A stretch of DNA of 59,080 nucleotides from an uncultured Armatimonadia bacterium. GTDB lineage: Bacteria > Armatimonadota > Zipacnadia > Zipacnadales > CAYWBK01. Made by a program: the position numbers and the translations under genes. Below, piece by piece: positions 3,058 to 41,675 of this stretch. The notes under the pieces were generated by a model. The model ran no database searches, was not told the DNA's origin, and was given only the letters and a program-made list of their open reading frames with translations. Every line of letters starts with the position of its first letter. Within the stretch, counting starts at the first letter, position 1. The stretch is from NCBI GenBank assembly GCA_964455745.1, contig CAYWBK010000001.1, positions 1 to 59,080 on the forward strand, read 5' to 3'.

Positions 3058-4104
3058 TCAGCCGCCCCCGCCCATCAGGTACGCCTGCAGTAGCTTTACG
3101 CAGTTCTCCATCGCCCCCAGGTGGCCGATCTCGTAGCCGTGCGTGTTCTCGGTGGGGAAACCTACGCACGCGGCGCGGCCGATGTGTCCGTATTTCACCG
3201 CGGTGCTGACATCGCTGCCGAAGCTGCGCACGAGCATCGGCTGGCACTCCAGCCCCAGGTTCTTCCCCGTAAAACACAGCCGATCCGACAGGCCTTTATG
3301 ATAGACGAAGATCGCGTCTTTATAGAAGATCACCGGCTGGTCACTCATCATAATAGGATATTCGGGGGCAACGGGCGCGATTTCGAGCGCAATGGCCTCG
3401 GACGCCGGGACGTGCGCCGCCGCGTATGCGCCACCCGAGATGCCCGGCTCCTCATTGCTGGTGGCGGCCAGGTACAGATCCCGCGCCGGGCGTAAGCCTG
3501 ACTCGTGGATCGCCCGCGCGAGCAGGACCATCATAGCTACGGAGGCCTTGTCGTCGAGCGCGTAGCCGGCGATGCAATCGCCGAGGAGCATTGGCGTCTT
3601 GCGCGAGCGGGCGACACAGGCGCGAGTGCCGACGCGCACACCCTTCGCCGCAAGTTCATCCTTGCTCAGCTTGCAGTCAATATAGCACAGCCCCCAGTGC
3701 AGGTTGCCTGCCTTCGCCGCGGCGATCTGCGGAGATTCGCCGGTGCTGTGCTTGCTGCCGACGCTGAGAATCCCCGTGATGACCTCGTCGCCCAGCACGT
3801 CCCACGGCCCTTCGCCGTAGGCCCAGGGCACGCATCCCCCCAGAGGTTCGAGCCGCAGCAGGCCCTTGTCATCAATGGTGTGGACGATTGCGCCGATCTC
3901 GTCCTTGTGGGCGAGCACGAGGGTGGCATCCTCCGAGGATCGCCCCTCGATCTTCGCCATGATGTTGTCGTGCGGGTCTCGCCAGACGCTGTCGCAGCAC
4001 CCTTGCAGCAGTTCCTCGACAATGCCTTCCATCTCCCCCTCTTCACCCGAGGGGGAATGGGTCACAAGCAGCCGATCGAGAAGCGAGATCAGTTTGTCGC
4101 GCAT
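3058..4104 (-). CDS. M42 family metallopeptidase (FrvX/CelM-like aminopeptidase)
   Basis: MRDKLISLLDRLLVTHSPSGEEGEM..., LVLAHKDEIG, DDKASVAMMV; 348 aa. Confidence 0.85.
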   Translation of the reverse strand: MRDKLISLLDRLLVTHSPSGEEGEMEGIVEELLQGCCDSVWRDPHDNIMAKIEGRSSEDATLVLAHKDEIGAIVHTIDDKGLLRLEPLGGCVPWAYGEGPWDVLGDEVITGILSVGSKHSTGESPQIAAAKAGNLHWGLCYIDCKLSKDELAAKGVRVGTRACVARSRKTPMLLGDCIAGYALDDKASVAMMVLLARAIHESGLRPARDLYLAATSNEEPGISGGAYAAAHVPASEAIALEIAPVAPEYPIMMSDQPVIFYKDAIFVYHKGLSDRLCFTGKNLGLECQPMLVRSFGSDVSTAVKYGHIGRAACVGFPTENTHGYEIGHLGAMENCVKLLQAYLMGGGG

Positions 4105-4149: not shown

Positions 4150-4200
4150 GTCGTTGCCGTTCTCCTGGCTCCTGGCTCCTGGCCTCTGGCTCCTGCCGTC
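4150..4200. repeat. Solo left-arm element: about 5 tandem heptads (CCAGGAG, minus sense) plus a GAACGGCAACGAC anchor
   Basis: Plus strand gtcgttgccgttc-tcctggc x about 5-tcctgccgtc, directly after the frame-corrected DUF2156 stop (4201-4203). Confidence 0.7.
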
Positions 4201-5117
4201 TCACTTCTGCCTCACCACGTACTTGTCCACCATTCGCACGGGACAGTACGACTCCTTCGCCTGCCGCAGGCCCGGAATGCCGAGGTCCTGCTCGCGGTTG
4301 ACGAAGGGGGTGTCGGCCCACTGTGCTCGAGAAACTGCTGGTTGATGGCCTGATAGAGACCGTGGAAGTTGCCGTTGGCCTTTTCGATATGGATGACGAG
4401 CGTCTCGGGGTTGAGCAACTCGCCGATCGTGAACGCCTCGACCCGGCCGTCGATGAGGATCGCGCCGCCGATGACGCCAAGGGTGGCCATGTTCCCGAGC
4501 ACCTCGCGGATCGCCGCGTGCTCGGCCAGAAGCGAGGCCACCAGGTCGCAGTGCTTCTCATCGCACCAGCGATCCTGAAGCTCCAGGCATTCGGGGACGA
4601 GGTCAGGAGTCAACCGGCGGTACTCGAAGTCGTGCTTCGACATGAACTGAGCGATGTGGTTCTTCTTCGAGTGATAGCGATTGCCGGACAACTCAATGAG
4701 ATCGCGGACGCTGTAAACATAGTCCGAGTTGTCGCGGTCTTCGGCGATCTCGAAGTCGGTGTCGGTGACGCCGCATCTGTCGAGATCGGCGCGGGAGGCG
4801 TGGGCCAGCTTCGGGTCGTGGCCGAGGTCCTCCAGAATGCCCAGGCACTGCCGCACCGTTTCGACGTTTCCGGCCAGCGGCGGGAGGATGAACGAGTCTT
4901 CGGGGTCGGGCCGGAGCGCAAACAGGCAGATGGCCTCGCCCGCCTTTGCGACCCGGAAGCCGTACTTGGATTTCCAGATGTGCAGATTGGTGAAGTTCAG
5001 GTCGGAGGTATCGGGGCCGTAAGCGGCGAGAGCCGCGCTGAGTTCCTCGCGGTTATCGAGAGCGACCTCGCACATCTCGGGCAATTGAGGGATCGGCATG
5101 GCAGCAGGTTTCCGCAC
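4201..5117 (-). pseudogene. DUF2156 (lysyl-phosphatidylglycerol synthase C-terminal-like) gene with a 1-nt frame break at a G5 run
   Basis: Main frame ends at 4212 with a junk tail. The adjacent frame reads FVNREQDLGIPGLRQAKESYCPVRMVDKYVVRQK* down to 4201. The switch is at 4306-4310 (ggggg). Confidence 0.65.
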
Positions 5118-6477: not shown

Positions 6478-6520
6478 TCGACACGCCTCCTATCCCTCAT
6501 GCGCGAACACGCATTGCGTT

Positions 6521-6566
6521 ATCCGTTTGCCAACGGATTGCAGTATCCGTTTGCCAACGGATTGCA
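6521..6566. promoter_or_regulatory. Two tandem 22-bp palindromic boxes (candidate operator)
   Basis: atccgtttgccaacggattgca at 6521-6542 and 6545-6566, with arms ATCCGTT-n4-AACGGAT. They lie in a divergent intergenic region. Confidence 0.5.
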
Positions 6567-7952: not shown

Positions 7953-10411
7953 AGAAGAGGGTTCGGGCGGTGCAGCAACGAACCCGGGCTTCGCGCCCCA
8001 TCGTCTTTGGAGGACTACTGCAGGTGGAAGACACCGCGTCGAAGACACCCCGCCCCCACGCACGACTGATGACTGCCGCGGCATTGCTGGCGCTTGTCGC
8101 GCTTGTCGCTCTCGCATATATCCGGTCACTGGCCTTCGGCCAAGCACTCTATGCTTGCGACATCGGGCAGCAAGATTACCCCTGGCAAACCTACCTGGCT
8201 CAGGCCCGCCTGCACGGCGACTGGTTTCCGATCGTGAAGGAGGTGGCCTGCGGCCATCCCCTGTGGGCGGACGGACAGAGCGGGATACTGGACCCGCTCC
8301 ACCTGGTCTGCCTGCTTCCCTTCGCCTCAACTTGGACGTTCGGGCTGACCGTCTTCCTCCATTGCGTAGCCGCTGCCCTGGGGATGTTCCTGCTGGCGCG
8401 ACTGTTTCGGATCAGTCTCACCGGCAGCGTTGTCGCGGGCGCAACATTCGCGCTCTCCGGAGCCGTCGCGACGCACGAGTGGCCGTATCCTCTCATGGCC
8501 ACAGTGGTGTGGATGCCATGGGGTGCACTGGGCGGCATCGAGTGGGCCTACAGACGCACTAGCGGGTGGATGATCGTAGGCGTCCTCGCTGCCGTGTTCA
8601 GTGCGTCCAACCATCCGCAAGAGCTCATCTATACATTCTGCTTCATCGCCGCTGCCGCTCTCGCGTATCAGGCGCTCGTTGCATCGGGTGCAAGAGCGCT
8701 GGAGCGCCGGAGCATCGCAGTGGTTGGGCGCAGCCTCGCTCCCTTCGCATTGGGCCTGGTGTGCTCCGGGATTTGCCTCTATCCCGTGTACGTCATGATA
8801 CACACGTGCGGCGTGGAGCGCGGCGGATGGCGGTTCTTGATCTACGACTCACTGGGTCCGTGGAATCTGGTGACTGCCTTTCTGCCGAACTTCTTCGGAG
8901 CTCCGACTGCGGGCGGCACCTGGGGTACCGCCCAGGTTTGGGAGTCCAGTCTCTACCACGGGGGGCTGGCCGCGCTGCTCGTCCTCGTGGTCCGACCGAC
9001 GAGTGAAGCCCACAGGCGCGCATTCAGGCGCCTGGCTGTGGGCATCATCCTGTTCCTGTTCGTGGCGATGGGCGGGTACAACCCACTGTACCGTCTGGTG
9101 CCCTATCTGCCTGTACTGAACCGGTTCCGGTGTCCGGCCAGATGGGCCATTGTGTCGAGCGGTCTGTTCTGCCTGGCCGTCGGACTGGTGATAGACCGGC
9201 TGCGTCGGCCCGACAACTCCCAGCGGCTGTGGTCGGCATTGGCTCGTATGTGCCTTGGGGTGGGGCTGGCGTGCGGCTTTGCGGCGGCATGGGTGACATT
9301 CGGCAAGCCGATCAATCTCTGGTTGGTACAGAAGGTCATGCACAGGGCCGAGCAGGGAGCCCAGTTGTATGCCTCCTACGCCGGGTTCATCGCCTGTGAC
9401 GCCGCCGAACTGGCGGCTGTATGCCTCGCCGCAGGCTTGGCCTTTCTCGTCGCATCGCGACATCGCGGCTGGGAATCAAGGGCAGTCGGCGCTGCTGTGG
9501 TGCTCGCACTGGCGCAGGTGGTCGTATTCACCTGGCGCTTCGACCCGACGACGGCTCCTGACCGGATCTACCCTGCAGCATCTCTGGGCTCCATATTGGC
9601 GAGCGCCCAGGGCCCTACAGGGCGCGTCATGGTCACCGGCTACGGCGATGATGACACGATCCCGCCCGGCAGTCCTCTGAATTCGCCGCTCGATCCTCTC
9701 CCCGGCGCTCTTTTCGGCGTCAACCGACCGGATTTCTATGGCCCGATGGCGCCGCCGGTCTGCAAACTGATCCGCCACACGGGACATCTGCGGCTGCGGA
9801 GCCCCAGCGTGTCCGCGGCGCTGGGCTGCAACATCCTTTGCGCCGGTCCTGAAGCGGCTGATGTTCCGGCGGGATGGGAGCCTCTGGCACGCCACGATGA
9901 CGACCGCATCTACACGAACGGACTCTACTGCGGCCTGGCTTGGACAGTCAGCCAGAGCACAACCGATGAAGACCTCTGGCAGAGAGTGGAAAACCACGAG
10001 GCGGCTTTGGATGACATGCTCGTGCGGCCGGCGATCAGCCCCGTGGACAGCGGCACCCAGGCTGCGTCTGCAGCGACGCCCGCGCGCCACGTCGACCTCA
10101 CCGCCACAGAGCGCCGTAGCTACCGCTTCCACGTGGATGACGGCCCCAGGCAGTACCTGATCCTGGCGATTTCGAACCTGCCCGGCTGGTCCGCCACCGT
10201 CAACGGCACGCCGGCGCAAATCAGGACCGCCAACACCGCATTCATGGCTGTGGACCTGCCGACAGGGCCGTGCGACGTAGAGTTCAAATACGCGCCATAC
10301 GGGCTGCGGATCGGCGGGGCCATCAGCGCGCTCGGGCTGCTGTGCCTGTTGGTCGTGGTGTTCGCCGACAGACGCCCCACGCGCAGCGATGAGCCGGAGC
10401 CGCCTCGGTAG
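7949..10411 (+). CDS. YfhO-family polytopic membrane protein (putative glycosyl carrier-dependent transferase)
   Basis: Many N-terminal TM segments. C-terminal LPGWSATVNGTPAQI..FMAVDLPTGPCDVEFKYAPYGLRIGGAIS plus a final TM. GTG at 7949 overlaps the sulfatase TGA. Alternative ATG at 8069. Confidence 0.7.
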   Translation: MKKRVRAVQQRTRASRPIVFGGLLQVEDTASKTPRPHARLMTAAALLALVALVALAYIRSLAFGQALYACDIGQQDYPWQTYLAQARLHGDWFPIVKEVACGHPLWADGQSGILDPLHLVCLLPFASTWTFGLTVFLHCVAAALGMFLLARLFRISLTGSVVAGATFALSGAVATHEWPYPLMATVVWMPWGALGGIEWAYRRTSGWMIVGVLAAVFSASNHPQELIYTFCFIAAAALAYQALVASGARALERRSIAVVGRSLAPFALGLVCSGICLYPVYVMIHTCGVERGGWRFLIYDSLGPWNLVTAFLPNFFGAPTAGGTWGTAQVWESSLYHGGLAALLVLVVRPTSEAHRRAFRRLAVGIILFLFVAMGGYNPLYRLVPYLPVLNRFRCPARWAIVSSGLFCLAVGLVIDRLRRPDNSQRLWSALARMCLGVGLACGFAAAWVTFGKPINLWLVQKVMHRAEQGAQLYASYAGFIACDAAELAAVCLAAGLAFLVASRHRGWESRAVGAAVVLALAQVVVFTWRFDPTTAPDRIYPAASLGSILASAQGPTGRVMVTGYGDDDTIPPGSPLNSPLDPLPGALFGVNRPDFYGPMAPPVCKLIRHTGHLRLRSPSVSAALGCNILCAGPEAADVPAGWEPLARHDDDRIYTNGLYCGLAWTVSQSTTDEDLWQRVENHEAALDDMLVRPAISPVDSGTQAASAATPARHVDLTATERRSYRFHVDDGPRQYLILAISNLPGWSATVNGTPAQIRTANTAFMAVDLPTGPCDVEFKYAPYGLRIGGAISALGLLCLLVVVFADRRPTRSDEPEPPR

Positions 10412-10435: not shown

Positions 10436-13351
10436 ATGTCGCCGCTGTCACTGATTGCCCTGCTCCTCCCGCATTCGGTCCTCGGCGCAGAGGCCATCCG
10501 TCTGCCTGTGATCGCCGACACCTCGCTGCAGGCACATCCGAGCGAAGTCAACTGCAACAGCGGCGCGTCGAGCGTCATCCGCATCAAGGGCAATGAGCAC
10601 TACATGCTCCTGAAGTTCGATCTCGCGCCGCTGCAGGGACAGCGCGTCGCGCAGGCCACGCTGCACCTCCACAACGCCCACCCGAACCTGCTGCGCACGG
10701 TGGGCCTGTCTACCATCGCCGCCGACTGGCAGGAGGGCACCGGGACCGGCGGGCCGGCGACCGACGGCTGCACCTTCACCCGCGCCGTCTGGCCGGACAA
10801 GATGTGGGCCGGGCCGGGCAGCGACTTCCTCGATGTGGCGATCACCCACGGCAACACCATCGTCCGCTATGTGGACATCCGCCAGGAGCCGGACGACTGG
10901 TTCGCGGTCGATGTCGATCCGCTGCTCGTCGACGCGATGATGTGCGGCTTCTCGTATGGCCTGTGCCTGTCCGACGAGAAAGGCCAGACGATGGCCAACA
11001 ATGACGTCCACTCGCGCGAACAGAACGCCTTCGCCCCGTACATGGCGGTCGAACCCGAAATCCCCAGCGCGAGGCTGGCGGCGCTGACACTGGCCCCGGT
11101 CGCCGCCGAGCCCTGGCCGGCTGCGGCGACGTTCGACACCGGGGCGATCCGCGTGAGACTCACCTCGCCGGGCGCGCTGGGGTATCGGGTCCAGTGTGAC
11201 CCGGCATACTCCAGCAAGCGCACGGAACTGCCGCGCTACCTCATTCCCCAGCCTGCGCCTGCCGGGCAGGAGCAGTCCTTCGTCATCCCCGGCCTGAAGC
11301 CCGGTGTGCCTTACGAGGTCCGCGTGCAGGCCGTGGCGTACCTCGGTCGCGAGAGCAACGTGCAAGCGCTCGAGGCGACTGCGAGCGCGGCCAAGGCGAA
11401 GCCTGCTCCGCTGGCGGCCCCGCGGCCCGTTACCAAGGTACTTGCTCAGCCACAAGCAGTTGGCAGCCTACGCGCGTGGATCTGCCCGGCTGAATGCAAG
11501 GTGCATCCGGTAAGCGCCAATGTGCTTGAGGAGGTGGGCGCGGCCAGATATGGTGGACCGCTCGCCGGCGCGTATGCCGGACAGAATCCAGTGTGGCTGC
11601 GCGACACCGCTTACTGCAAAGGCGCGCGCGGCGAAGTCGTCGCAGTTCAACTCATCGTCGAGACGACCAAGGGCACGCCGGTCTCTTTCAGCGTCCAGTT
11701 CGCCCCCGGCGCGGCGAACCCGATGCCGAATCCCGTCGGCGTGTACCGCAACTGGTACGTGAATGACGGTGACTGGTACGCCGACTACATGGCCCCGATG
11801 CCCGACGGCAAGGCCATGATCCCCGCGCCGGACAATGCAGTTCCCGGCCAACGCAATCAGTCGTTCACCATTGTCTGGGAACTCCCGCGCGATGCCAGGC
11901 AGGGCGAGGCAACCGGCCAGGTGCGCGTTGTGCCTGATTCGGGCGGGCCCGGTCCCGTTATCCCGATCCGCATGTGGGTCCGCAACTTCGAGGTCCCCGC
12001 GAAGACGAGTTTCGAGCTGGACCTCAACTGCTACGGGCCGGTGTGCCAGGCCGCCAACTGGGACGATTATCTCGCCCGCGAGCGCAAGTTCTTCGCCGCG
12101 GCGCACGCCCTGCGCGGGACGCTCAACCCGCTGGGGTACTCGCACTCCGGCAACAACGACTTCGGCTGGGTACCGCAAGTCAGCGGCGCGGGCAAGGACA
12201 TCCGCGTCACCGACTGGAGCGTCTACGACCGGCACTGGGGGCCGTACCTCGACGGCAGCGCCTTCGGCGGGGTGAGGGCCGGGGTGCCGGTCTCACATAT
12301 CTATCTACCGCTGTACGAGGGCTGGCCGACGCCGATGGACGGCCATTACACCGGCGGGAACGACATCCGCAAGTACCCGGACAACATCATCGCCCACGCC
12401 ATGACGGCTCCGCCGGTCGAGCAGGCCTTCGACTCGACACTCAAGGAGGCGTTCGTATCGGTGACGCGGCAGTTCGTCGAGCACTTCGCCGAGCGCAGGT
12501 GGCTGCAGACCGACATGCAGTGCTACCAGAACGATAAGTACTACTACAAAGATGAGAAGTCGAACTTCCGGGGCATCTCCTGGTGGTTGCTCGACGAGCC
12601 GATGCACCGGGATGACTGGCTGGCGCTGCGGTTGTTTGCGGGGCTGTACCGGGAGGGCTTGAGGCTGGCAGGTGACACGCCGGCCCCACGGGGCCTGGCG
12701 GGCGAGACGCCCGCCCCACGCGTTGCGGCTGAAGGAATGCCCGCCGCACGCGGAGGCGAAGGGCCTGGCCCGCGCTTCATCTATCGGGGCGACATCTCGC
12801 GGCCCCAGTACCAGCGCGACTGGCTCGACGGGCGCATCGACCTGATGTGCGTCAGCTCGGAGTTGTTCGCGCACCCGCAATACTGCCGGCGTTTCCGCGA
12901 CCAGGGCGTGACCCTGTGGCATTACGGCGAGGCGAACCCGATCTCGCAGACGAATCTGACGGCGGTCGGCTGGGCGCTGAAGGCCTACTGCGCCGGGGCC
13001 GACGGCATCCTGCCCTGGAACTCCATCGGGGGTCCGGGGGCCCTCACGCAGCCGGACCCGACCGGGCTGCTCATCCCCGGAGACCGCTTCGGCGCCACGG
13101 GGCCGGTCGTCAGCCTGCGGCTTCTCGCGCTGTGTCGCGGGCAGGAGGATGTGGAGTACCTGAACCTGTTGGCGAAGCGACGCGGATATGACCGGGACCA
13201 GATGGCGCGACTGGTGAGCGACTTCGTCGGGCTGTCGGGCCGGCAGCAACAGACATCCGCCGAGGACGCCGGGCGTCTGCAGTTCGACATGCTATCGCCC
13301 GAGCAGTTCTCCGAACTGAGGGAGGCGGTCGCGCGGGAGTTGGAGAAGTGA
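10436..13351 (+). CDS. Secreted multidomain glycoside-hydrolase-like protein (N-terminal DNRLRE/CBM-like domain, FN3, DUF4091/GH123-like C-terminal part)
   Basis: SD AGGAGG lies 8 nt upstream. Signal peptide present. YMLLKFDLAPLQGQRVAQATLHLH, PGLKPGVPYEVRVQAV, ...GILPWNSIGG. Confidence 0.65.
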   Translation: MSPLSLIALLLPHSVLGAEAIRLPVIADTSLQAHPSEVNCNSGASSVIRIKGNEHYMLLKFDLAPLQGQRVAQATLHLHNAHPNLLRTVGLSTIAADWQEGTGTGGPATDGCTFTRAVWPDKMWAGPGSDFLDVAITHGNTIVRYVDIRQEPDDWFAVDVDPLLVDAMMCGFSYGLCLSDEKGQTMANNDVHSREQNAFAPYMAVEPEIPSARLAALTLAPVAAEPWPAAATFDTGAIRVRLTSPGALGYRVQCDPAYSSKRTELPRYLIPQPAPAGQEQSFVIPGLKPGVPYEVRVQAVAYLGRESNVQALEATASAAKAKPAPLAAPRPVTKVLAQPQAVGSLRAWICPAECKVHPVSANVLEEVGAARYGGPLAGAYAGQNPVWLRDTAYCKGARGEVVAVQLIVETTKGTPVSFSVQFAPGAANPMPNPVGVYRNWYVNDGDWYADYMAPMPDGKAMIPAPDNAVPGQRNQSFTIVWELPRDARQGEATGQVRVVPDSGGPGPVIPIRMWVRNFEVPAKTSFELDLNCYGPVCQAANWDDYLARERKFFAAAHALRGTLNPLGYSHSGNNDFGWVPQVSGAGKDIRVTDWSVYDRHWGPYLDGSAFGGVRAGVPVSHIYLPLYEGWPTPMDGHYTGGNDIRKYPDNIIAHAMTAPPVEQAFDSTLKEAFVSVTRQFVEHFAERRWLQTDMQCYQNDKYYYKDEKSNFRGISWWLLDEPMHRDDWLALRLFAGLYREGLRLAGDTPAPRGLAGETPAPRVAAEGMPAARGGEGPGPRFIYRGDISRPQYQRDWLDGRIDLMCVSSELFAHPQYCRRFRDQGVTLWHYGEANPISQTNLTAVGWALKAYCAGADGILPWNSIGGPGALTQPDPTGLLIPGDRFGATGPVVSLRLLALCRGQEDVEYLNLLAKRRGYDRDQMARLVSDFVGLSGRQQQTSAEDAGRLQFDMLSPEQFSELREAVARELEK
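12665..12753. repeat. Three REP-like units embedded in frame in the CDS
   Basis: ctggcaggtgacacgccggccccacgg, cctggcgggcgagacgcccgccccacgcg and gaaggaatgcccgccgcacgcgg encode LAGDTPAPRGLAGETPAPRVAAEGMPAARGG. The same repeat occurs in intergenic regions at 38.7, 40.0 and 44.6 kb. Confidence 0.6.
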
Positions 13352-18123: not shown

Positions 18124-19443
18124 TCAGCCGCCGAGCACTCGTTTCGCCTGCGTCACCGTGCGGGCGGTCAGGCCGCTGATGCGGTTGATCTCGAAACCCG
18201 CTACTGCGCTGTGCAGCGTGTCGTTTAGCGGCGCGGTCCATTTCTCCGGCACGCCCTCGGCCCCCAGTAGCGCCCCCATGACCGACCCCGCTGTCGCCCC
18301 GTTGCAGTCCGTGTCCAGGCCGCCCATGACGGCGATGCAGATCGCCTTCTCGAAGTCGCCGCTCGCGTGCAGGCACCCGATGAGCACCACGACCGCGTTG
18401 TTGATCGTATGGACCGGGTGGTAATGGCCGTACTTCGCGTCCATACGGCTCCACGTCGTCTCCCAGGCATCATCCTCGGCGCACCAGGCCACCGTGTCCC
18501 GCACGGCCTCGGCAAGGCGCGACTGCGCGGGGATCTCGGACAGCGCGATCTCGATAGCCGCGTGCAGGTCGTCGGTCGCCACGCACGCGGCGATCAGCGC
18601 GGCGAAGAACATCTCCCCGTAGATGCCGTTCTTGATGTGCGAGATGCAGGCATCGCGCCAGGCGAACTCGGCGGCTTTCTCAAGCCAGGTGGCGGCGCAA
18701 TAGGCGAAGCCGTCGCAACGGATCTGGGCCCCGATCCACTCGCGGAAAGGGTTCATCAGCACGGCGGACTGGGGCGGCCAGACCTCGTCGACGAAGTTGC
18801 GGTAGGCCTCGCGCTCGGCGGTGTAGACACGATGGTACGGCAGGCACTCGAGCCAGACGCCGGCGACATCGCGAGGCGTGAAGTCGGGGCCGAAACGCTC
18901 CAGGCAGTGCAGGCCGATGACGGTGTAATCCGTATCATCGTCGCGCGCGCCATAGCGGATGTTGCCCCGGAGGCAGTCGTTGTCGGGCGGGTAGGCGGCC
19001 ATGCCCTCGGGGACCTCGCGAACGGGCGGGAAGTAGTCGGCGAGCGGGTAGGCTTGCGCGTGCTTGAGGATCGCCTCGATGTCAGCCTTGCGCCACCCCT
19101 CGACCGGCTTGCCTAACATGCACCCGACCGTGCGGCCCAGCCACGCGCCGCGGATGCGGTCGGACAAGACCCCATCGGAGACCGCCGGGAGACGGCGCGG
19201 GCCCTCGGGGCGGGCTGCCCTGATCTCGGCGAGGGTCGAGAGCTCGATATACGGGAAGTCGGGCACGGAGCGAGCCTCGGCGGCCTGGTTCCACCATGCG
19301 AGAAGGGCGTCGTGCTGCGGGATCGGCGCGAGGCTTGTGGCCTGATCGAGGAGGGTCCTCAGAGCGGTCGTATCGCAGCCTTCCTCGGCCAGTTGGGCAA
19401 GCTCCGCGAAGGCGAGATTGCGCAAGGTATCGACGCTGAGCAT
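18124..19443 (-). CDS. ADP-ribosylglycohydrolase family protein
   Basis: ARDDDTDYTVIGL and GGLDTDCNGATAGSVMGALLG. Start chosen at the ATG at 19443 (MLSVDTL...) with an AAGGA SD. Confidence 0.85.
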   Translation of the reverse strand: MLSVDTLRNLAFAELAQLAEEGCDTTALRTLLDQATSLAPIPQHDALLAWWNQAAEARSVPDFPYIELSTLAEIRAARPEGPRRLPAVSDGVLSDRIRGAWLGRTVGCMLGKPVEGWRKADIEAILKHAQAYPLADYFPPVREVPEGMAAYPPDNDCLRGNIRYGARDDDTDYTVIGLHCLERFGPDFTPRDVAGVWLECLPYHRVYTAEREAYRNFVDEVWPPQSAVLMNPFREWIGAQIRCDGFAYCAATWLEKAAEFAWRDACISHIKNGIYGEMFFAALIAACVATDDLHAAIEIALSEIPAQSRLAEAVRDTVAWCAEDDAWETTWSRMDAKYGHYHPVHTINNAVVVLIGCLHASGDFEKAICIAVMGGLDTDCNGATAGSVMGALLGAEGVPEKWTAPLNDTLHSAVAGFEINRISGLTARTVTQAKRVLGG

Positions 19444-19599
19444 GAGCGTGTTCCTTTCGGGCGGGATGTGGTAGGGGTTCGACCGCCGAGAGGGTGTGAC
19501 CTGCCGGGGGAGGGCGGCGACCGGACTGGGGTGGCGGGCGGAGCCGCTCATCCTCTGCCGTCGCCTGCTGAAGCGGAAACAATGAAGGCCGATTCTGTG

Positions 19600-19628
19600 T
19601 TGACCTCTCCGAACACGGTTGGTATACT
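19600..19628 (+). promoter_or_regulatory. Near-consensus sigma70-like promoter for the hdrBC-like/glt-like operon
   Basis: TTGACC (19600-19605), 17-nt spacer, TATACT (19623-19628), about 38 nt before the ATG at 19666. Confidence 0.55.
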
Positions 19629-19665
19629 AACGGGCCAACGTCGTAGCTAAGGACGGCTCCTTGTC

Positions 19666-21066
19666 ATGTTTGCTGCCTTCTGGGGTTGCTTCATCGCGGG
19701 CAGGTTCCCATTCCTCGAAAAGTCAACTCGCGCCGGCCTCGATCAATTGGGCTTTGAGTTTGCTGACCTCGATGGCTTTACCTGTTGCCCCGAAAAGTCC
19801 CTCGTCAAGAACCGAAGTGAAGAGATCTGGCTTCTGACCGCGGCGCGCAATCTGGCGCTCGCCGAGGAAGCCGGACACGACCTTTTCAGCCCTTGCAACG
19901 GATGCGTCGGCACCCTCAAAGGCGCCGAGAAGCACATCGTCAACGACTCGAAGCTGCACGCCGAGGTCAATGAGAAGCTCGCGACCATCGGCAAGCGGCT
20001 GGAGGGCAACGTCGATGTGCGGCACCTGCTGGAGATCCTTCACGATGTCATCGGCCTCGACCGCATCCGCCAGAGCGTCGTGCATCCGCTGAAAGGTCTG
20101 CGCGTGGCCGTGCACGCGGGGTGCCACCAGACGCGCCCGAGCGAGGACCTCGAACTCGACGACCCCCTCGACCCGACGATGTTCGAGAAGATCATCAAGG
20201 CTCTCGGGGCGACGGTCGTCGACTACCCAAGCAAGCTCTTGTGCTGCGGCGGGACGATGAACACGGCCGGGCTCACCGAGCCGGCCGAGAACATGACCCG
20301 GCGCAAGCTGCGGGAACTGTCGGACATCGGCGTGGATTGCATCTGCGTCGTGTGCCCGGCGTGTTTCATGCAGTACGACATCGCCCAGTTCAACATGGAG
20401 CGCCAGGGGCACCGCTACAACGTGCCGGTGGCGTACATCATGGAACTCATCTGCGTCGCGATGGGGCTTGATGTCTCGGAGATGGGGCTGGACATGCACC
20501 GCATCCCCATCGAGTCGGCGCTGGAGAGGTTCATCTCCGGCGCGAGTGATAAGCGCACGATCCGCAGCCGTTTCGACATCCCGGCGATGGAGCGATGCCT
20601 CGAGTGTCAGGCGTGCTCGCGCAATTGCGCGGCGATGCTCAACGAGAACGCCTACAGCCCGTACGAACTGATGCGCAGCGTTGTGGAGGGCGACCTGGGC
20701 GAGGCGCTCAAATCGGAGGACGTGTGGCGGTGCCTGGAGTGCTATGAGTGCAAGGAACGCTGCTTCCAGAACTTCGGCATGATTACCGCGATGCGGACGC
20801 TGAAGGAGCTTGCGATCGAGCGCGGCCTCGCGCCGACAGCCGTGACCGCCGGCATCCAGGCGTTCGAGGACAGCGGTCTTCTCACACAGCCCTCCGCCTC
20901 GCGGCGCAAGAAGCTGGGCCTCCCGGACTCGACCAAGTCGGGGATCGAGGAACTGCGGGAGCTGGTCGGCCTGGAAGCCAAGCCGCGGAAACGGCAGGAG
21001 TCAGGAGCTGACGGCAGCGGCGAGAAAGCGGCAGGGGGACGCCGTCGCCGTGTGCCGCCGTCCTGA
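19666..21066 (+). CDS. HdrB-like (two CCG domains) fused to an HdrC-like 2x[4Fe-4S] domain
   Basis: FWGCF..FTCCPEK..SPCNGC; HAGCHQ..LLCCGG..VCPAC; CLECQACSRNC and CLECYECKERC. Confidence 0.8.
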   Translation: MFAAFWGCFIAGRFPFLEKSTRAGLDQLGFEFADLDGFTCCPEKSLVKNRSEEIWLLTAARNLALAEEAGHDLFSPCNGCVGTLKGAEKHIVNDSKLHAEVNEKLATIGKRLEGNVDVRHLLEILHDVIGLDRIRQSVVHPLKGLRVAVHAGCHQTRPSEDLELDDPLDPTMFEKIIKALGATVVDYPSKLLCCGGTMNTAGLTEPAENMTRRKLRELSDIGVDCICVVCPACFMQYDIAQFNMERQGHRYNVPVAYIMELICVAMGLDVSEMGLDMHRIPIESALERFISGASDKRTIRSRFDIPAMERCLECQACSRNCAAMLNENAYSPYELMRSVVEGDLGEALKSEDVWRCLECYECKERCFQNFGMITAMRTLKELAIERGLAPTAVTAGIQAFEDSGLLTQPSASRRKKLGLPDSTKSGIEELRELVGLEAKPRKRQESGADGSGEKAAGGRRRRVPPS

Positions 21067-21107
21067 TCTCAGAGCGCCCGGCTCCCGGGCACTGCTTTCG
21101 CAAACGT

Positions 21108-21233
21108 GTGCCGCATTTTACGCATCTACGCGAGTTCCATTCTGGCGGGAGGGAATGAAGAGTCGACGACCGCCGTGCGCCGTCTTCCCAACTCCTAACT
21201 CCCATATCCCGCCTCTTCAGGGGTGTAAACCCG
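21108..21233. repeat. Solo right-arm element with a decayed 3' remnant of a four-helix-bundle ORF
   Basis: Diverged copy of 24466-24601. An identical 21-mer agttccattctggcgggaggg lies at 21133-21153 and 24497-24517. Heptads cttccca/actccta/actccca are followed by cccgcctcttcagg directly before the ATG. Confidence 0.65.
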
Positions 21234-22316
21234 ATGTTTCGTGACTACAACCGCGACAGCGCGGCTTGCGGCCTTATCGGCTGGATGAACCGCAAGGGCA
21301 AGAGACAGGATGGCGCCGGCATGATCCGGGCCATCGAGAACATGCAAGAGCGGGGCAACGGCCTCGGCGGCGGATACGCGGCCTACGGCATCTACCCGGA
21401 GCATCGCGACCTGTATGCGATGCACCTGATGTACGACGGCGAGACCGCAAAGGCCAAGTCGGAGGACTGGATCAAGAGCCGGTTCGATATCGAGCACGCC
21501 GAGCCGATCCCGACCCGCAAGTCGTCGGCCATCCGCAACGAGCCGCTGCTGTGGCGCTATTTCTGCAAGCCGAACGGGGACTATGGCTACGGCACCGAGG
21601 CGGACTACGTCGTCGATGCGGTGATGGGCGTCAACGTCGAAATCGACGGGGCGTTCGTCTTCTCCAGCGGCAAGAACATGGGCGCTTTCAAGGCCGTGGG
21701 CTTCGCCGCGGACGTGGGCCGTTTCTTCCGGCTCGACGAGTATGAGGCCTACATCTGGACCGCGCACGAGCGCTTCCCGACCAACACCCAGGCATGGTGG
21801 GGCGGAGCGCATCCGTTCTGTCTGCTGGACTACTCGGTCGTCCATAACGGCGAGATTTCGTCTTACGGGATCAACCGCCGGTACCTGGAAATGTATGGGT
21901 ATAGCTGCACGCTGCAGACGGACACCGAGGTCATGGTGTATCTGTTCGACTTCCTCGTCCGCAAGCAAGGGCTGCCACTGGACGTAGCCGCAAGCGTCGT
22001 GGCAGCGCCCTTCTGGAAGGACATCGACGACGAGCAGGACCCGCAGAAGAAGGAATTGGAGACGACCTTGCGGACGGTATACGCCTCGGCACTGGTCAAC
22101 GGGCCGTTCGCGATCCTGCTGGGTCACTCGCGCGGGCTGATGGGTCTCAACGACCGGATCAAGCTGCGACCGATGGTTGCGGCGGAGGACGGCGACGATC
22201 TGTATATTGCGAGCGAGCACGCGGCAATCCGCGTCATCTGCCCTGAGCCTGAGCGCACCTGGATGCCGAAAGCCGGCGAACCCGTGATGGGGTGGCTGGA
22301 TGAGGGCGTCGCCTGA
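21234..22316 (+). CDS. Class-II (Ntn) glutamine amidotransferase, glutamate synthase domain-1-like
   Basis: ...SAACGLIGWMN (Cys12), RGNGLGGGYAAYG, HNGEISSYG; 360 aa. Confidence 0.8.
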   Translation: MFRDYNRDSAACGLIGWMNRKGKRQDGAGMIRAIENMQERGNGLGGGYAAYGIYPEHRDLYAMHLMYDGETAKAKSEDWIKSRFDIEHAEPIPTRKSSAIRNEPLLWRYFCKPNGDYGYGTEADYVVDAVMGVNVEIDGAFVFSSGKNMGAFKAVGFAADVGRFFRLDEYEAYIWTAHERFPTNTQAWWGGAHPFCLLDYSVVHNGEISSYGINRRYLEMYGYSCTLQTDTEVMVYLFDFLVRKQGLPLDVAASVVAAPFWKDIDDEQDPQKKELETTLRTVYASALVNGPFAILLGHSRGLMGLNDRIKLRPMVAAEDGDDLYIASEHAAIRVICPEPERTWMPKAGEPVMGWLDEGVA

Positions 22317-22358
22317 CGGCGAACGGCTTCCTACCCCTGCCGCGCTGCGCGCGGCCAT

Positions 22359-22424
22359 CCCCTCCCTCGTAGGGAGGGGAAACGGCGACCTCACCCCCGG
22401 CCCCTCTCCACAAGTGGAGAGGGG
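22359..22424. repeat. REP-like hairpin pair in the intercistronic gap
   Basis: cccctccc-tcgta-gggagggg (22359-22379) and cccctctccac-aa-gtggagagggg (22401-22424). The second recurs at 39925-39950. Confidence 0.7.
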
Positions 22425-22514
22425 GGAAGAGCGCACTTTCCCGCGCGGCGCGGTATATCCCGGTAGCAGGGAGCCCGCGATGCGCGTTCAAACCAACGAG
22501 TTGGATAGATTAAC

Positions 22515-24026
<1,512 letters not shown>

Positions 24027-24083
24027 GGACGGCGAGGACGGCAGGAGTTGGGAGTTGTGGAGTTAGGAGTTGACGGCAACGGC
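24027..24083. repeat. Left arm of the four-helix-bundle insertion (heptads GGAGTTR plus GACGGCAACGGC anchor)
   Basis: ggacggcgaggacggc-aggagtt-gggagtt-gtggagtt-aggagtt-gacggcaacggc, directly after the TGA at 24024-24026. Confidence 0.7.
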
Positions 24084-24144
24084 GGCAAGTCCGGTCCGGG
24101 AGTTTGAGGACGGCGGCTGGAACGCTGAAGCCGATACGAGGGGA

Positions 24145-24531
24145 ATGCCTGTGGGGGACAGACCTGTCGCCAAGAGCTTCAGAGACCTCATTGTCTGGCA
24201 GAAGGCGCATGAGTTTGTCTTGTATGTATATCGCCTAACTGAGGATTTCCCTAGAAACGAGATGTTCGGCCTTACGTCTCAACTCCGCCGCGCTGCCGTG
24301 TCCGTGCCCGCCAATATTGCCGAAGGATTCCGCCGCAGAGGGCGGGCGGACAAGGCTCATTTCATGAATATCGCCGAGGCTTCGCTGGATGAGGCGCTCT
24401 ACTATCTCATTCTCGCCCAAGACCTCGGGTATAGCGAAACCCAAGATGGCGTCGCGCAGGCCGAAGCCGTGAGCGCGCATACTGCGCGCATACGCAAGTT
24501 CCATTCTGGCGGGAGGGGAGTGAAGGTTTGA
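24145..24531 (+). CDS. Four-helix-bundle protein (TIGR02436, 23S rRNA intervening-sequence protein family)
   Basis: FRDLIVWQKAHEFVLYVYRLTEDFPRNEMFGLTSQLRRAAVSVPANIAEGFRR. ATG at 24145 follows GAGGGG. Confidence 0.85.
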   Translation: MPVGDRPVAKSFRDLIVWQKAHEFVLYVYRLTEDFPRNEMFGLTSQLRRAAVSVPANIAEGFRRRGRADKAHFMNIAEASLDEALYYLILAQDLGYSETQDGVAQAEAVSAHTARIRKFHSGGRGVKV

Positions 24532-24543
24532 TGGCCGGCGTCC

Positions 24544-24598
24544 GTCGTTTGCCGTCTCCTAACTCCCAGTTTCCAATTCCTAACTCCCGCCTCCTCAG
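24544..24598. repeat. Right arm of the four-helix-bundle insertion (inverted relative to the left arm)
   Basis: gtcgtttgccgtctc-ctaactccc-agtttcc-aattcct-aactccc-gcctcctcagg, ending in AGGTGA before the next start codon. Confidence 0.7.
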
Positions 24599-25345
24599 GT
24601 GATTAACGTGCAAATCGACGCAACCGGAACCCCGTACCGACAGCTTAACGAGCAGGTTCGGGAAATCGCGGAGAACGGCGAGAAGGCCATCGAACTCGTC
24701 AATGTCAACGGTCATCGATATATCGGCGCGGGGCTGAAGAAAGGCGTCAGCATCGACGTCTTCGGCATACCGGGCAATGACCTCGCCGCCTTCCTCAATG
24801 GCGCGACCATCCATATCCACAACGGCGCCCAGGATGGCGTAGCCAATACGATGAACGACGGCTCGGTCGTCATCGACGGCGATGCGGGCGACGTTCTCGG
24901 CTACGGAATGCGCGGCGGCGAAGTGTATGTGAAGGGCGACGTCGGTTATCGCGTGGGCATCCACATGAAGTCGGACAAACACCGCTCGCCGGTGATCGTT
25001 GCCGGCGGTCGTGCGGGCGATTTCCTCGGCGAGTACATGGCCGGCGGGACGCTGGTAGTGCTGGGCCTGGAAGAGGACACCAAGCCGCTCATGGGCGATT
25101 ATTGCGGCACCGGCATCCACGGCGGCACGATCTACCTGCGCGGGGAGATCGACAAGTCGCACATCGCGACGCGAGATGCGACACTGCGCGAGGCGGACGA
25201 AACGGACCTGGAGAAGGTCAAGCCGTACATCGCCAAATTCTGCGAGCGCTTCGGCTACACGATGGAGCAGGTCATGGCGGAGAAGCTGTGGGTCGTGGCT
25301 CCGAACCGGCGCAGAGCTGGCGCGGCGTATGTGGCGAATCCATAG
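24599..25345 (+). CDS. GXGXG-motif protein (glutamate synthase domain-3 / FwdC-like)
   Basis: GHRYIGAGL..IDVFGIPGNDLAAFLNGATIHIHGNAQDGVANTM-like repeats and GGEVYVKGDVGYRVG. GTG at 24599 or in-frame GTG at 24608. Confidence 0.85.
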   Translation: MINVQIDATGTPYRQLNEQVREIAENGEKAIELVNVNGHRYIGAGLKKGVSIDVFGIPGNDLAAFLNGATIHIHNGAQDGVANTMNDGSVVIDGDAGDVLGYGMRGGEVYVKGDVGYRVGIHMKSDKHRSPVIVAGGRAGDFLGEYMAGGTLVVLGLEEDTKPLMGDYCGTGIHGGTIYLRGEIDKSHIATRDATLREADETDLEKVKPYIAKFCERFGYTMEQVMAEKLWVVAPNRRRAGAAYVANP

Positions 25346-25371
25346 GGCGAAGCATCGCGAAAAGGAGCATC

Positions 25372-25411
25372 AGCGCCCGGTTGGCGAGAGTCAGCCGGGC
25401 GCTTTGGGTTC
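25372..25411 (+). terminator. Rho-independent terminator after the glt-like operon
   Basis: gcgcccgg (25373-25380), 14-nt loop, ccgggcgc (25395-25402), followed by tttgggtt. Confidence 0.6.
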
Positions 25412-25535
25412 TCGTCTCCGGAATGCGACAGCGTTCACATTTGTAACCGATGGCGGCTGCTGGCGCGCCCGTGCAGCGAGTTTGGCGTTCAGATTTCGGT
25501 GGAGTGCCATCTCTCGCGGAGGGTATTATTCTGGT

Positions 25536-26669
25536 ATGGATACCACACGCTATGATATGCCTGCGCGGCAGGAAATGATCCAAGCTCTGATGCGACGCGA
25601 CGCGTCATACGACGGCCTGTTCTACTTTGCCGTCACGACGACCGGAATCTTCTGCAGGCCATCCTGTCCGGCGCGAAGACCGAAGCCCGAGCACGTGGAG
25701 TTCTATGCCAGTCAACGTGAGGCGCTGTTCGCCGGCTTCCGGCCCTGCGCCCGGTGCCGACCTCTCGAAAGCGAAGACGGCGCGCCGGACTGGGCGACAA
25801 CGCTTGTGCGACGGGTGGAGGCAGACCCGACACGGCGCATCACCGATATGGAGCTTCGGCGGGAGGGCATCGATCCTGTGGCGGCTCGCCGGTTTTTCAA
25901 GAAAGCCTTCGGCCTGACCTTCCAGGCTTACGCGCGGGCCAGGCGCCTCGGATCTGCGTTCGCAGCCATCAAGGCAGGGGCAAGTCTCGACGACGCTGTC
26001 TTCGATCACGACTGGGAGTCGCATTCCGGGTTCCGCGAGGCCTTCGAGAAGGCCTCCGGCACGACGCCAGGCGCGGCTCGGGCGTCCGACTTCGTTCGCC
26101 TGGCATGGATCGAGACGCCGCTGGGGCCGATGGTTGCAGCGGCCACCGAAGATGCTGTCTGCCTGTTGGAGTTCTCTGATCGCCGGATGCTGGAAGCGCA
26201 GTTGGCAACGCTGAGGCGGCGCTTCCGTCTCCCCCTTCTGCCGGGTGACAGCCCTCTCTTCGATCGGCTCCGCGCCGAACTATCCGAGTATTTCACCGGC
26301 CGGCGCTCAGCATTCGATCTGCCACTCAAGTACCCCGGCACCGAGTTTCAACATCAGGTGTGGGATGCACTGCTGCATATCCCATACGGCGAAACGCGCA
26401 GTTACTCGGATCTTGCCCGCGAAATGGGCGATCCACAGGCGGCTCGCGCCGTGGGGCGTGCCGTCGGCCTCAACCGGATTGCCATTCTCGTCCCATGCCA
26501 CCGTGTCATCAACGCGGACGGGGGGCTCGGCGGATACGGCGGGGGCTTGTGGCGAAAGCTGCGACTGCTCGAAACTGAGGCGGCAGGTCGGCGCCCCGAG
26601 GCCCTGAAGGGGGACGCCGGCCCTGAGGCTCTCTCCCACGTCGGCGAGTTGATGCCTTGGCAGACGTGA
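25536..26669 (+). CDS. ada: Bifunctional Ada-like regulator / O6-methylguanine-DNA methyltransferase
   Basis: FCRPSCPARRP..CARCRP (Ada zinc site), an AraC-type HTH region, and the PCHRVI active site. Start at the ATG at 25536. Confidence 0.85.
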   Translation: MDTTRYDMPARQEMIQALMRRDASYDGLFYFAVTTTGIFCRPSCPARRPKPEHVEFYASQREALFAGFRPCARCRPLESEDGAPDWATTLVRRVEADPTRRITDMELRREGIDPVAARRFFKKAFGLTFQAYARARRLGSAFAAIKAGASLDDAVFDHDWESHSGFREAFEKASGTTPGAARASDFVRLAWIETPLGPMVAAATEDAVCLLEFSDRRMLEAQLATLRRRFRLPLLPGDSPLFDRLRAELSEYFTGRRSAFDLPLKYPGTEFQHQVWDALLHIPYGETRSYSDLAREMGDPQAARAVGRAVGLNRIAILVPCHRVINADGGLGGYGGGLWRKLRLLETEAAGRRPEALKGDAGPEALSHVGELMPWQT

Positions 26670-41571: not shown

Positions 41572-41580
41572 GGTTGGATA

Positions 41581-41622
41581 CTCCAGGATGCTGGATGCTG
41601 GATGCTGGGAACGGCAACGGCC
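41581..41622. repeat. Solo right-arm element (3 perfect heptads GATGCTG plus GAACGGCAACGGC anchor) directly upstream of cysK
   Basis: Heptads at 41587-41607. Minus sense reads gccgttgccgttcc-cagcatc x3-ctggagtatccaaccATG. Confidence 0.7.
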
Positions 41623-41675
41623 CCACCCCGCCGCCCTTACGGGCGGCACCCCTCCCGTGCCGGGAGGGGAACGGC

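Follow-up and report, generated by a model that had tools for sequence, protein, structure and literature searches.

We describe here an element in a window of 59,080 nucleotides (the whole stretch of DNA analysed, positions 1 to 59,080 of contig CAYWBK010000001.1 from an uncultured Armatimonadia bacterium), in which a small gene of the TIGR02436 family stands inside an operon of glutamate-synthase-like genes and is bracketed by inverted arrays of 7-nt repeats. In our opinion it is rather probable that this element, which we call E1 (about 24020-24602), is a cassette of the type known from 23S rRNA as an intervening sequence (IVS), carried here in the mRNA of an operon. A preliminary description of this DNA had already spoken of an mRNA analogue of an rRNA IVS. 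This is fair as far as the protein family, the insertion and the pairing of the arms are concerned, whereas processing by RNase III is a part of it that we only infer. Three observations go beyond that description: inverted heptad arms are general in the gene family, arms of the same type also occur without any open reading frame (ORF), and a decayed second copy of the cassette is present in the same operon.

Cassette E1 and the pairing of its arms

The 128-aa ORF is indeed present where it had been reported, from the ATG at 24145 to the stop at 24531 on the plus strand, between an FMN-domain gene that stops at 24026 and a gene for a GXGXG domain. It matches PF05635 (E 1.1e-34, 119.3 bits, cutoff 33.8) and TIGR02436 (E 1e-32, 112.6 bits, cutoff 24), a family of four-helix-bundle (4HB) proteins. 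Compared by sequence only, its best match in the PDB is structure 2GSC (Xanthomonas XCC0516, E 7.4e-22), and 2RLD is matched at E 4e-5.

The left arm (24020-24118, plus strand) is purine-rich and Shine-Dalgarno-like. It consists of 2.6 copies of a 9-nt tandem repeat, GAGGACGGC (24025-24046), then four GGAGTTR heptads (24044-24072) and then the inner stem GACGGCAACGGC. The right arm (24532-24602, plus strand) begins with the inner stem CCGTCGTTTGCCGTC, continues with the heptads CTAACTCC, CAGTTTC, CAATTCC and TAACTCC (24556-24588), ends in CCGCCTCCTCAGGTGA and has stops in all three frames. Both arms read as they had been quoted, except that the 9-nt repeat of the left arm had been skipped. The estimate by eye that about three quarters of the arms are reverse-complementary is matched by an alignment of the left arm with the reverse complement of the right one (54 matches in 72 columns, 75%). 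The folding that had been proposed as a check gives a stable duplex: the two arms pair with -95.6 kcal/mol against -61.8±5.3 kcal/mol for 300 dinucleotide shuffles (z -6.4), none of which comes as low, and in the minimum free energy fold of 24010-24620 (611 nt) the arms are paired end to end. An earlier census of flank duplexes, based on 130-nt flanks and mononucleotide shuffles, proved too noisy (the window reached only z -1.8, with shuffles at -89 kcal/mol), and was replaced by these arm-only dinucleotide shuffles and by the TRF census described below. Matches resembling GGAGTTRGGAGTT occur eight times in the window, where 1.25 are expected, and six of the eight lie at E1 or at its decayed copy, E2.

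The closest relatives of the 4HB protein, with 78-80% identity in the aligned part, are two proteins encoded on the metagenome contigs L001 and L002, in both of which the gene order is HdrBC-GATase-FMN-[4HB]-GXGXG. Heptads also make up the arms of these two elements (AACTCCY and GGAGTTR/GAAGTTR), in copy numbers that differ, and the duplexes of these arms reach z -7.0 in L001 and z -3.0 in L002. The AGGTGA that had been placed directly before the next start codon is present at 24597-24602; the start codon given with it, 24599, which is also where the mechanical ORF call begins, is probably not the right one. The GXGXG cistron probably starts at the GTG at 24608 (24608-25345, plus strand), because this position aligns with the starts of the relatives (ATG in L001; ATG and GTG over the two relatives). 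With that start, AGGTGA would be the Shine-Dalgarno sequence of this cistron, provided by the end of the cassette. CAGGTGA precedes the GXGXG start codon in L001 and L002 as well, and the right arm ends in the Shine-Dalgarno sequence of the downstream gene in all three relatives.

ORF-bearing 23S IVSs are among the closest known systems. In Coxiella the 23S IVS has a 28-bp terminal stem that is cut by RNase III, and its S23p ORF is preceded by AGAAGA and three to four tandem GACAGAT heptamers, the number of which varies between strains (Warrier et al. 2016, PMC4990558). E1 encodes a protein of the same family (PF05635/TIGR02436) as the ORF-bearing 23S IVSs of Coxiella, Leptospira, Xanthomonas and Brucella. 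Its ORF is sense with respect to the host transcript and occupies the loop of the stem that the complementary terminal repeats of E1 can form; tandem heptamers of variable copy number (here the four GGAGTTR units) and an AG-rich, Shine-Dalgarno-like stretch are also present upstream of the ORF. Thus the suggestion that the same kind of element sits in an operon mRNA holds with respect to protein family, inverted arms and upstream heptamers. Decay of the ORF is shared too: that of Coxiella is eroding, that of the window is frameshifted and that of E2 is deleted. Unlike the 23S IVSs, which lie in helix 25 or 45, E1 lies between protein-coding cistrons and its host is a polycistronic mRNA; its arms are longer, are on either side made up mostly of heptad arrays, and bring stops in three frames and the Shine-Dalgarno sequence of the next gene. 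RNase III cleavage has been shown for the rRNA IVSs, whereas for E1 it is a prediction.

The frameshift in the window ORF lies near codon 108 (24465-24531) and affects its C-terminal ~20 codons relative to the relatives; an 11-nt tandem duplication, GCGCGCATACT (24473-24493), adjoins it. Profile matches end at residue ~110 of 128, and the C-terminus of the family, RILRAYASSILAGGE and a stop, sits in the +1 frame, which reads ARILRAYASSILAGGE and a stop in the window and agrees with the C-termini of the relatives (SKMLRAYANAILAE and SRMLRAYASAILAE, each followed by a stop). The window protein therefore falls short of a full-length four-helix bundle with its conserved C-terminal helix end and is still a member of the family. 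L003, a 775-nt metagenome contig obtained independently from another sample, encodes an identical frameshifted protein. Compared with L001 and L002, the 4HB gene is under purifying selection (dN/dS 0.07-0.15), and, unlike the eroding Coxiella ORF, the ORF of this lineage has been so over most of its history. In the same comparison its synonymous divergence (dS 1.4-2.3) is 2-4 times as high as in the neighbouring FMN and GXGXG genes (0.36-0.81). An exchange or replacement of cassette copies at a fixed site could explain this, and so could weaker codon bias or saturation in a short gene.

Other affiliations of the protein fit less well. HEPN-type RNases are distant relatives of the four-helix-bundle fold (Pfam clans), and such an activity was rejected: the R-x4-6-H motif is not conserved, the window protein having R-ADKA-H where L001 and L002 have R/K-PEKA-R. 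Avd, the accessory protein of diversity-generating retroelements, is distantly homologous in its four-helix-bundle fold and pentamer (phrog_3206 1e-9; NF033474 28.9 bits). Unlike Avd, the window protein stays below the NF033474 cutoff of 80 bits, has no reverse transcriptase and no template or variable repeats nearby, and has metabolic neighbours of the glutamate-synthase type; hence a retroelement context was rejected as well. The search for anti-phage defence genes with PADLOC gave no match.

Heptad arms throughout the gene family

The proposal to inspect the flanks of other TIGR02436 genes was followed in 80 metagenome loci encoding 4HB relatives at 58-76% identity, where we counted as an array any period-7 repeat of three or more units found by TRF, and as near anything within 220 nt of the 4HB gene. 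Such arrays occur at 1.76 per kb near the 4HB genes, at 0.15 per kb elsewhere in the same loci and at 0.04 per kb in unrelated operon loci (906 kb), which amounts to an enrichment of 12-fold over the rest of the same loci and of about 40-fold over the unrelated ones. Sufficient flanking sequence is available for 60 of the genes: 52 of these have at least one array, and 32 are flanked by arrays on both sides. In 22 of the 32 the downstream unit, allowing one mismatch, reads as the reverse complement of the upstream one. The extreme is L084, with ~28 units per side. The upstream unit follows the pattern A-G-R-A-K-N-C and is 72% purine.

The units of the two arms covary. The mismatch between an element's own arms is 1.09 per 7 positions, against 2.09 between arms of different loci (permutation p<1e-4). 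Units vary among elements on one contig (E1 to E4 of the window, L092, L022) yet agree within an element, and distant relatives (41-54% identity) have other units, such as GTGACGA, CGGATAC, GAGTAGG and AGTGGTT, while keeping the inverted symmetry. A match within elements combined with variation between them is what selection on pairing predicts, and not what a single sequence-specific reader predicts. Polarity is constant as well: both in the ORF-bearing elements and in every ORF-less pair read in operon loci, the purine-rich arm is always the 5' one. In gene-called loci the cassette splits housekeeping operons and has the orientation of the gene upstream of it (rplU-rpmA-[4HB]-obg, trmD-[4HB], trx-[4HB]). 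The longest-ORF and G1-G2 orientation heuristics are unreliable, because antisense ORFs in high-GC DNA score like real genes, and their tallies (upstream gene co-directional 33:25 and 45:15) are a hint only.

The family has at least about 8,000 relatives at E ≤ 1e-10; only three, all distant and all with heptad arms, were found in IMG/VR. Four of the loci (L085, L092, L132 and L156) each carry two 4HB genes within 2-3 kb that flank a single host gene, and some genomes appear to be densely colonised by 4HB cassettes. Three other contigs start inside long heptad arrays (L107, 1-97; L145, 1-127; L134, 1-71); such arrays probably break short-read assemblies, and metagenome censuses would under-count them.

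The host operon, the insertion and further copies of the arms

The operon reads as one transcription unit on the plus strand (19600-25345), with the cistrons HdrB/HdrC-like, GATase, FMN, 128-aa ORF and GXGXG. A sigma-70-like promoter match, TTGACC-17-TATACT with a TG (19600-19628), lies 5' of the first cistron and is the only such match in the operon region, the scan of which revealed no promoter-like or terminator-like site at the arms or in the spacers. The first cistron encodes an HdrB/HdrC-like protein with CCG and 4Fe-4S domains (19666-21066), and is followed by those for a class-II glutamine amidotransferase (GATase, 21234-22316) and for a Fer4 and Glu_synthase (FMN) protein (22515-24026), the stop codon of which adjoins the left arm of E1. 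Downstream, a mechanical ORF at 25176-26669 overlaps the 3' end of the GXGXG cistron by 170 nt; since its Ada and Ogt domains begin only at residue ~132, this Ada-like gene probably begins well downstream of the called start.

To judge from the comparison of operons, E1 is a lineage-specific insertion, and an old one. It is missing from about 30 operons with this gene order that belong to other phyla, and two close relatives, L001 and L002, have it at the same site. In these ~30 loci, which belong to several phyla, FMN stands directly before GXGXG, the spacers measure 25-130 nt, and neither tblastn nor a profile HMM finds a 4HB gene in them. The comparison with orthologous operons thus speaks for the insertion that had been proposed, and the two relatives that have the gene keep the inverted heptad flanks. 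The nearest GXGXG proteins among GTDB species representatives belong to Armatimonadota metagenome-assembled genomes (MAGs) and are 52-59% identical. At ≤59% amino acid identity the empty sites are too divergent to define the exact ends of the cassette, and no target-site duplication could be defined. No transposase gene was found in or beside any element of the window or of the gene-called relative loci.

A decayed second copy, E2 (20988-21233, plus strand), lies in the spacer one gene upstream. Its left arm, GGCAGGAGTCAGGAGCTGACGGCAGCGGCG (20988-21025), is homologous to that of E1 (88% over 26 nt), and the HdrBC-like ORF runs through it with its 3' end. A remnant of the C-terminus of the 4HB ORF follows (21106-21159) and translates to CRILRIYASSILAGGNE; 27 nt of it are 96% identical to E1 (E 9e-8). 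The right arm (21160-21233) consists of AACTCCT and AACTCCC heptads and CCGCCTCTTCAGGGG, and ends 8 nt before the GATase start codon.

The same type of arms occurs in the window without any ORF. E3 (4150-4200, minus strand) is a solo array of the left-arm type, GACGGC-(AGGAGCC)x5-AACGGCAACGAC; its flanks, GACGGC and ACGGCAACG, are the same as those of the E1 left arm, and it lies between the co-directional minus-strand genes 4212-5117 and 3058-4104. E4 (41585-41625, minus strand) is a solo array of the right-arm type, GCCGTTGCCGTTCC-(CAGCATC)x3, in which the three CAGCATC units come after GCCGTTGCCGTT; it ends ~15 nt before the ATG at 41572, again between co-directional minus-strand genes. Two GC-rich hairpins, CCCCTCCCGGCACGGGAGGGG and GCCGCCCGTAAGGGCGGC, precede the E4 array (41585-41675, minus strand), and a 24-nt tandem repeat, ACGGATTGCAGTATCCGTTTGCCA, is present elsewhere in the window in 2.4 copies (6509-6566, 91% match).

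In other phyla, spacers of this operon also hold inverted heptad pairs without an ORF (L022, L020, L030 and L043). In L022, a Nitrospinota MAG, every spacer of the homologous operon has an ORF-less heptad hairpin (321-390, 1969-2038 and 2823-2980); their units differ (AATTGGA, TAAGTTT and AATTGAA), and one hairpin lies exactly at the FMN|GXGXG junction. L020, a Peptococcaceae MAG, has at 10825-11037 (CAGGAGT)x4 and, after ~170 nt, TTCTGAA/CTGACTA arrays, in the HdrBC|GATase spacer that is the junction of E2; the pair is not present in four related MAGs (L017, L024, L025 and L036). One ORF-less pair each was found in L030 and L043. A profile HMM of 78 census proteins, run against six-frame fragments of 80 operon loci, detected no 4HB remnant in the ORF-less hairpins; descent from an ORF-bearing cassette is visible only in E2 of the window. 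Outside this operon, L164 has an ORF-less inverted pair (8340-8464; ATTTGTA x4.7 and AAATTAG x4.7) between a SPOUT methyltransferase gene and cobA, and the same contig has a 4HB cassette with a different unit between rpmA and obg.

Competing explanations and a possible wider family of heptad elements

If E1 is an IVS-type cassette, an ancestor of the lineage would have acquired it in the FMN|GXGXG spacer of its split glutamate-synthase-like operon, and it would have been inherited since. It would be transcribed within the operon mRNA, as no promoter or terminator of its own was found. The purine-rich left arm, with its AGGAG-like units, and the pyrimidine-rich right arm would then make up a long, imperfect stem with the ORF in its loop, and an upstream ORF can read into a left arm, as the HdrBC-like ORF does in E2. 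By analogy with the 23S rRNA IVSs the stem would be a likely substrate of RNase III, and the transcript would be cut at the arms. The stops in three frames and the ready-made Shine-Dalgarno sequence of the right arm would keep the downstream cistron translatable, which would make the insertion tolerable even inside essential operons.

Several points weigh against this interpretation. The arms of E2 pair no better than chance (z -0.8). A test for pairing as sense-strand RNA was neutral, with 53 G.U-compatible against 45 A.C arm mismatches in 30 loci; thus pairing could be selected at the level of DNA, or the test may have lost sharpness, as tandem repeats allow pairing in more than one register. 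In E1 some 500 nt separate the arms, and a stem of such long range would face competition from translation of the ORF. Some right arms in the family are without stop codons (e.g. those with TTCTGGC units), and the frameshifted 3' end of the window ORF means that the protein may not matter here. An Rfam scan of 19000-26000 gave no match at E ≤ 1.

It is also conceivable that these are mobile elements at the DNA level, similar to MITEs (miniature transposable elements with inverted repeats) or foldback elements. The arrays would then be terminal inverted repeats, or hairpin or cruciform sites for a recombinase or transposase supplied in trans or for replication slippage; the RNA stem would be incidental and the 4HB gene cargo or a helper. 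A transposon origin of IVSs has been proposed by Burgin and by Ralph & McClelland (cited in PMC4990558). Several copies and solo arms within one 59-kb window would suit such an element, as would the ORF-less pairs in operon spacers of other phyla (that of L020 being absent from close relatives), arm mismatches that are symmetric between the strands, and a synonymous divergence of the 4HB gene that looks as if copies had been exchanged or replaced. Like E1, MITEs and the repetitive extragenic palindromic sequences and their mosaic elements (REP/BIME) are short, non-autonomous-looking inverted repeats in operon spacers that are able to form mRNA hairpins, and ORF-less forms outnumber ORF-bearing ones in Xanthomonas. 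Unlike them, the elements described here have tandem-heptad arms with an element-specific unit, and neither a transposase or RAYT-like gene nor a target-site duplication was seen with them. Moreover, the units vary within one genome, unlike the terminal repeats of a single transposase, and the strict polarity with respect to transcription, here and in PMC4692102, would be unexpected. In our opinion a DNA-level origin of this kind is rather unlikely.

A regulatory role was put forward for other heptamer arrays by MacGregor (2015, PMC4679880), who proposed an unidentified, possibly mobile, heptamer-binding post-transcriptional regulator for TAACTGA arrays that lie just 5' of start codons and have stops in all frames. 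Transferred to the present case, the arrays would be RNA or DNA binding sites, and a pentameric Avd-like 4HB protein would be the binder that regulates itself and the flanking cistrons post-transcriptionally, with a symmetry that follows from the geometry of binding. The enrichment of arrays beside 4HB genes, the conserved core of the unit, the purifying selection on the protein, and its homology to the pentamer of 2GSC and, more weakly, to Avd, which binds nucleic acids, would all agree with this. It is difficult to reconcile with distant members whose units are quite different while their arms still match each other, with the many arrays that have no 4HB gene nearby, or with the frameshift of the window ORF, and the binding role of 4HB proteins is itself putative; we regard this explanation as improbable. 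That an ordinary small gene merely happens to lie in a GC-rich spacer between low-complexity flanks that are complementary by chance has next to nothing in its favour. It is true that GC-rich shuffles also give strong duplexes (about -62 kcal/mol with the arms only, -89 kcal/mol in the 130-nt test). Nevertheless, coincidence is refuted by the 300 shuffles that never reach the observed energy, by the pattern in 52 of 60 relatives with its enrichment of arrays, and by the covariation of the arms, and the homologous second copy E2 speaks against it too.

Arrays of this type have a literature of their own. Period-7 arrays between co-oriented genes, as here, are known as GGGAATC in Xanthomonas, GGGGA(C/T)T in Nostoc, TAACTGA in Beggiatoaceae, Cyanobacteria and Bacteroidetes, and as the short tandemly repeated repetitive (STRR) sequences of cyanobacteria (PMC4692102, PMC4679880). 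They are transcribed, vary in copy number between strains and often form convergent, i.e. inverted, pairs 36-67 nt apart within operons, with the pyrimidine-strand array, which contains stops, just before the next start codon. E1 resembles them in its co-oriented spacer, its purine-rich strand at the 5' side and its inverted partner. Among the Xanthomonas arrays are 70-75 inverted pairs, located for example in the gltB|gltD, groES|groEL and atpA|atpG spacers, and the arrays have been interpreted as G-quadruplex formers (Rehm et al. 2015, PMC4692102). One listed array, GGGAATCGGGAGTGGAGAATCGGGAATC, stands between bccP and XCC0516, with a 17-nt overlap with the start of the latter (PMC4692102, S2 Table A, #15); XCC0516 encodes the protein of structure 2GSC. 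In these studies the arrays enclose no gene and are read as G-quadruplexes or regulator sites, whereas here they bracket a protein gene. In our full-text searches no paper connected TIGR02436 genes with inverted heptad arms outside rRNA. As far as the literature was searched, the general bracketing of the 4HB family by inverted heptad arrays and its tie to intergenic heptamer repeats are new; the published Coxiella and Xanthomonas data fit, and the link to the 4HB family was never drawn there.

One may speculate further that TIGR02436 genes with inverted heptad arms are the protein-coding, autonomous form of a widespread and so far unrecognised element, and that the intergenic heptamer arrays and hairpins (cyanobacterial STRR, Xanthomonas GGGAATC, Beggiatoa TAACTGA) are its ORF-less derivatives. 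The 4HB pentamer would be the trans factor that recognises the hairpin and drives its spread or maintenance, possibly via an RNA intermediate released by RNase III, and the 23S IVS would be the same element landed in rRNA. We give this general scheme only a small chance of being correct as a whole. It would join three puzzles, the origin of ORF-bearing 23S IVSs, the role of the large 4HB family and the excess of intergenic heptanucleotide repeats, and our analysis suggests that the three are faces of one thing. A heptad-armed cassette can live in any abundant transcript, be it rRNA or the mRNA of an operon, and its neighbours are apparently not silenced by it. For the annotation of genomes it matters that such cassettes split conserved operons (rpmA|obg, accB|accC, the subunits of glutamate synthase) and extend or truncate the neighbouring ORFs.

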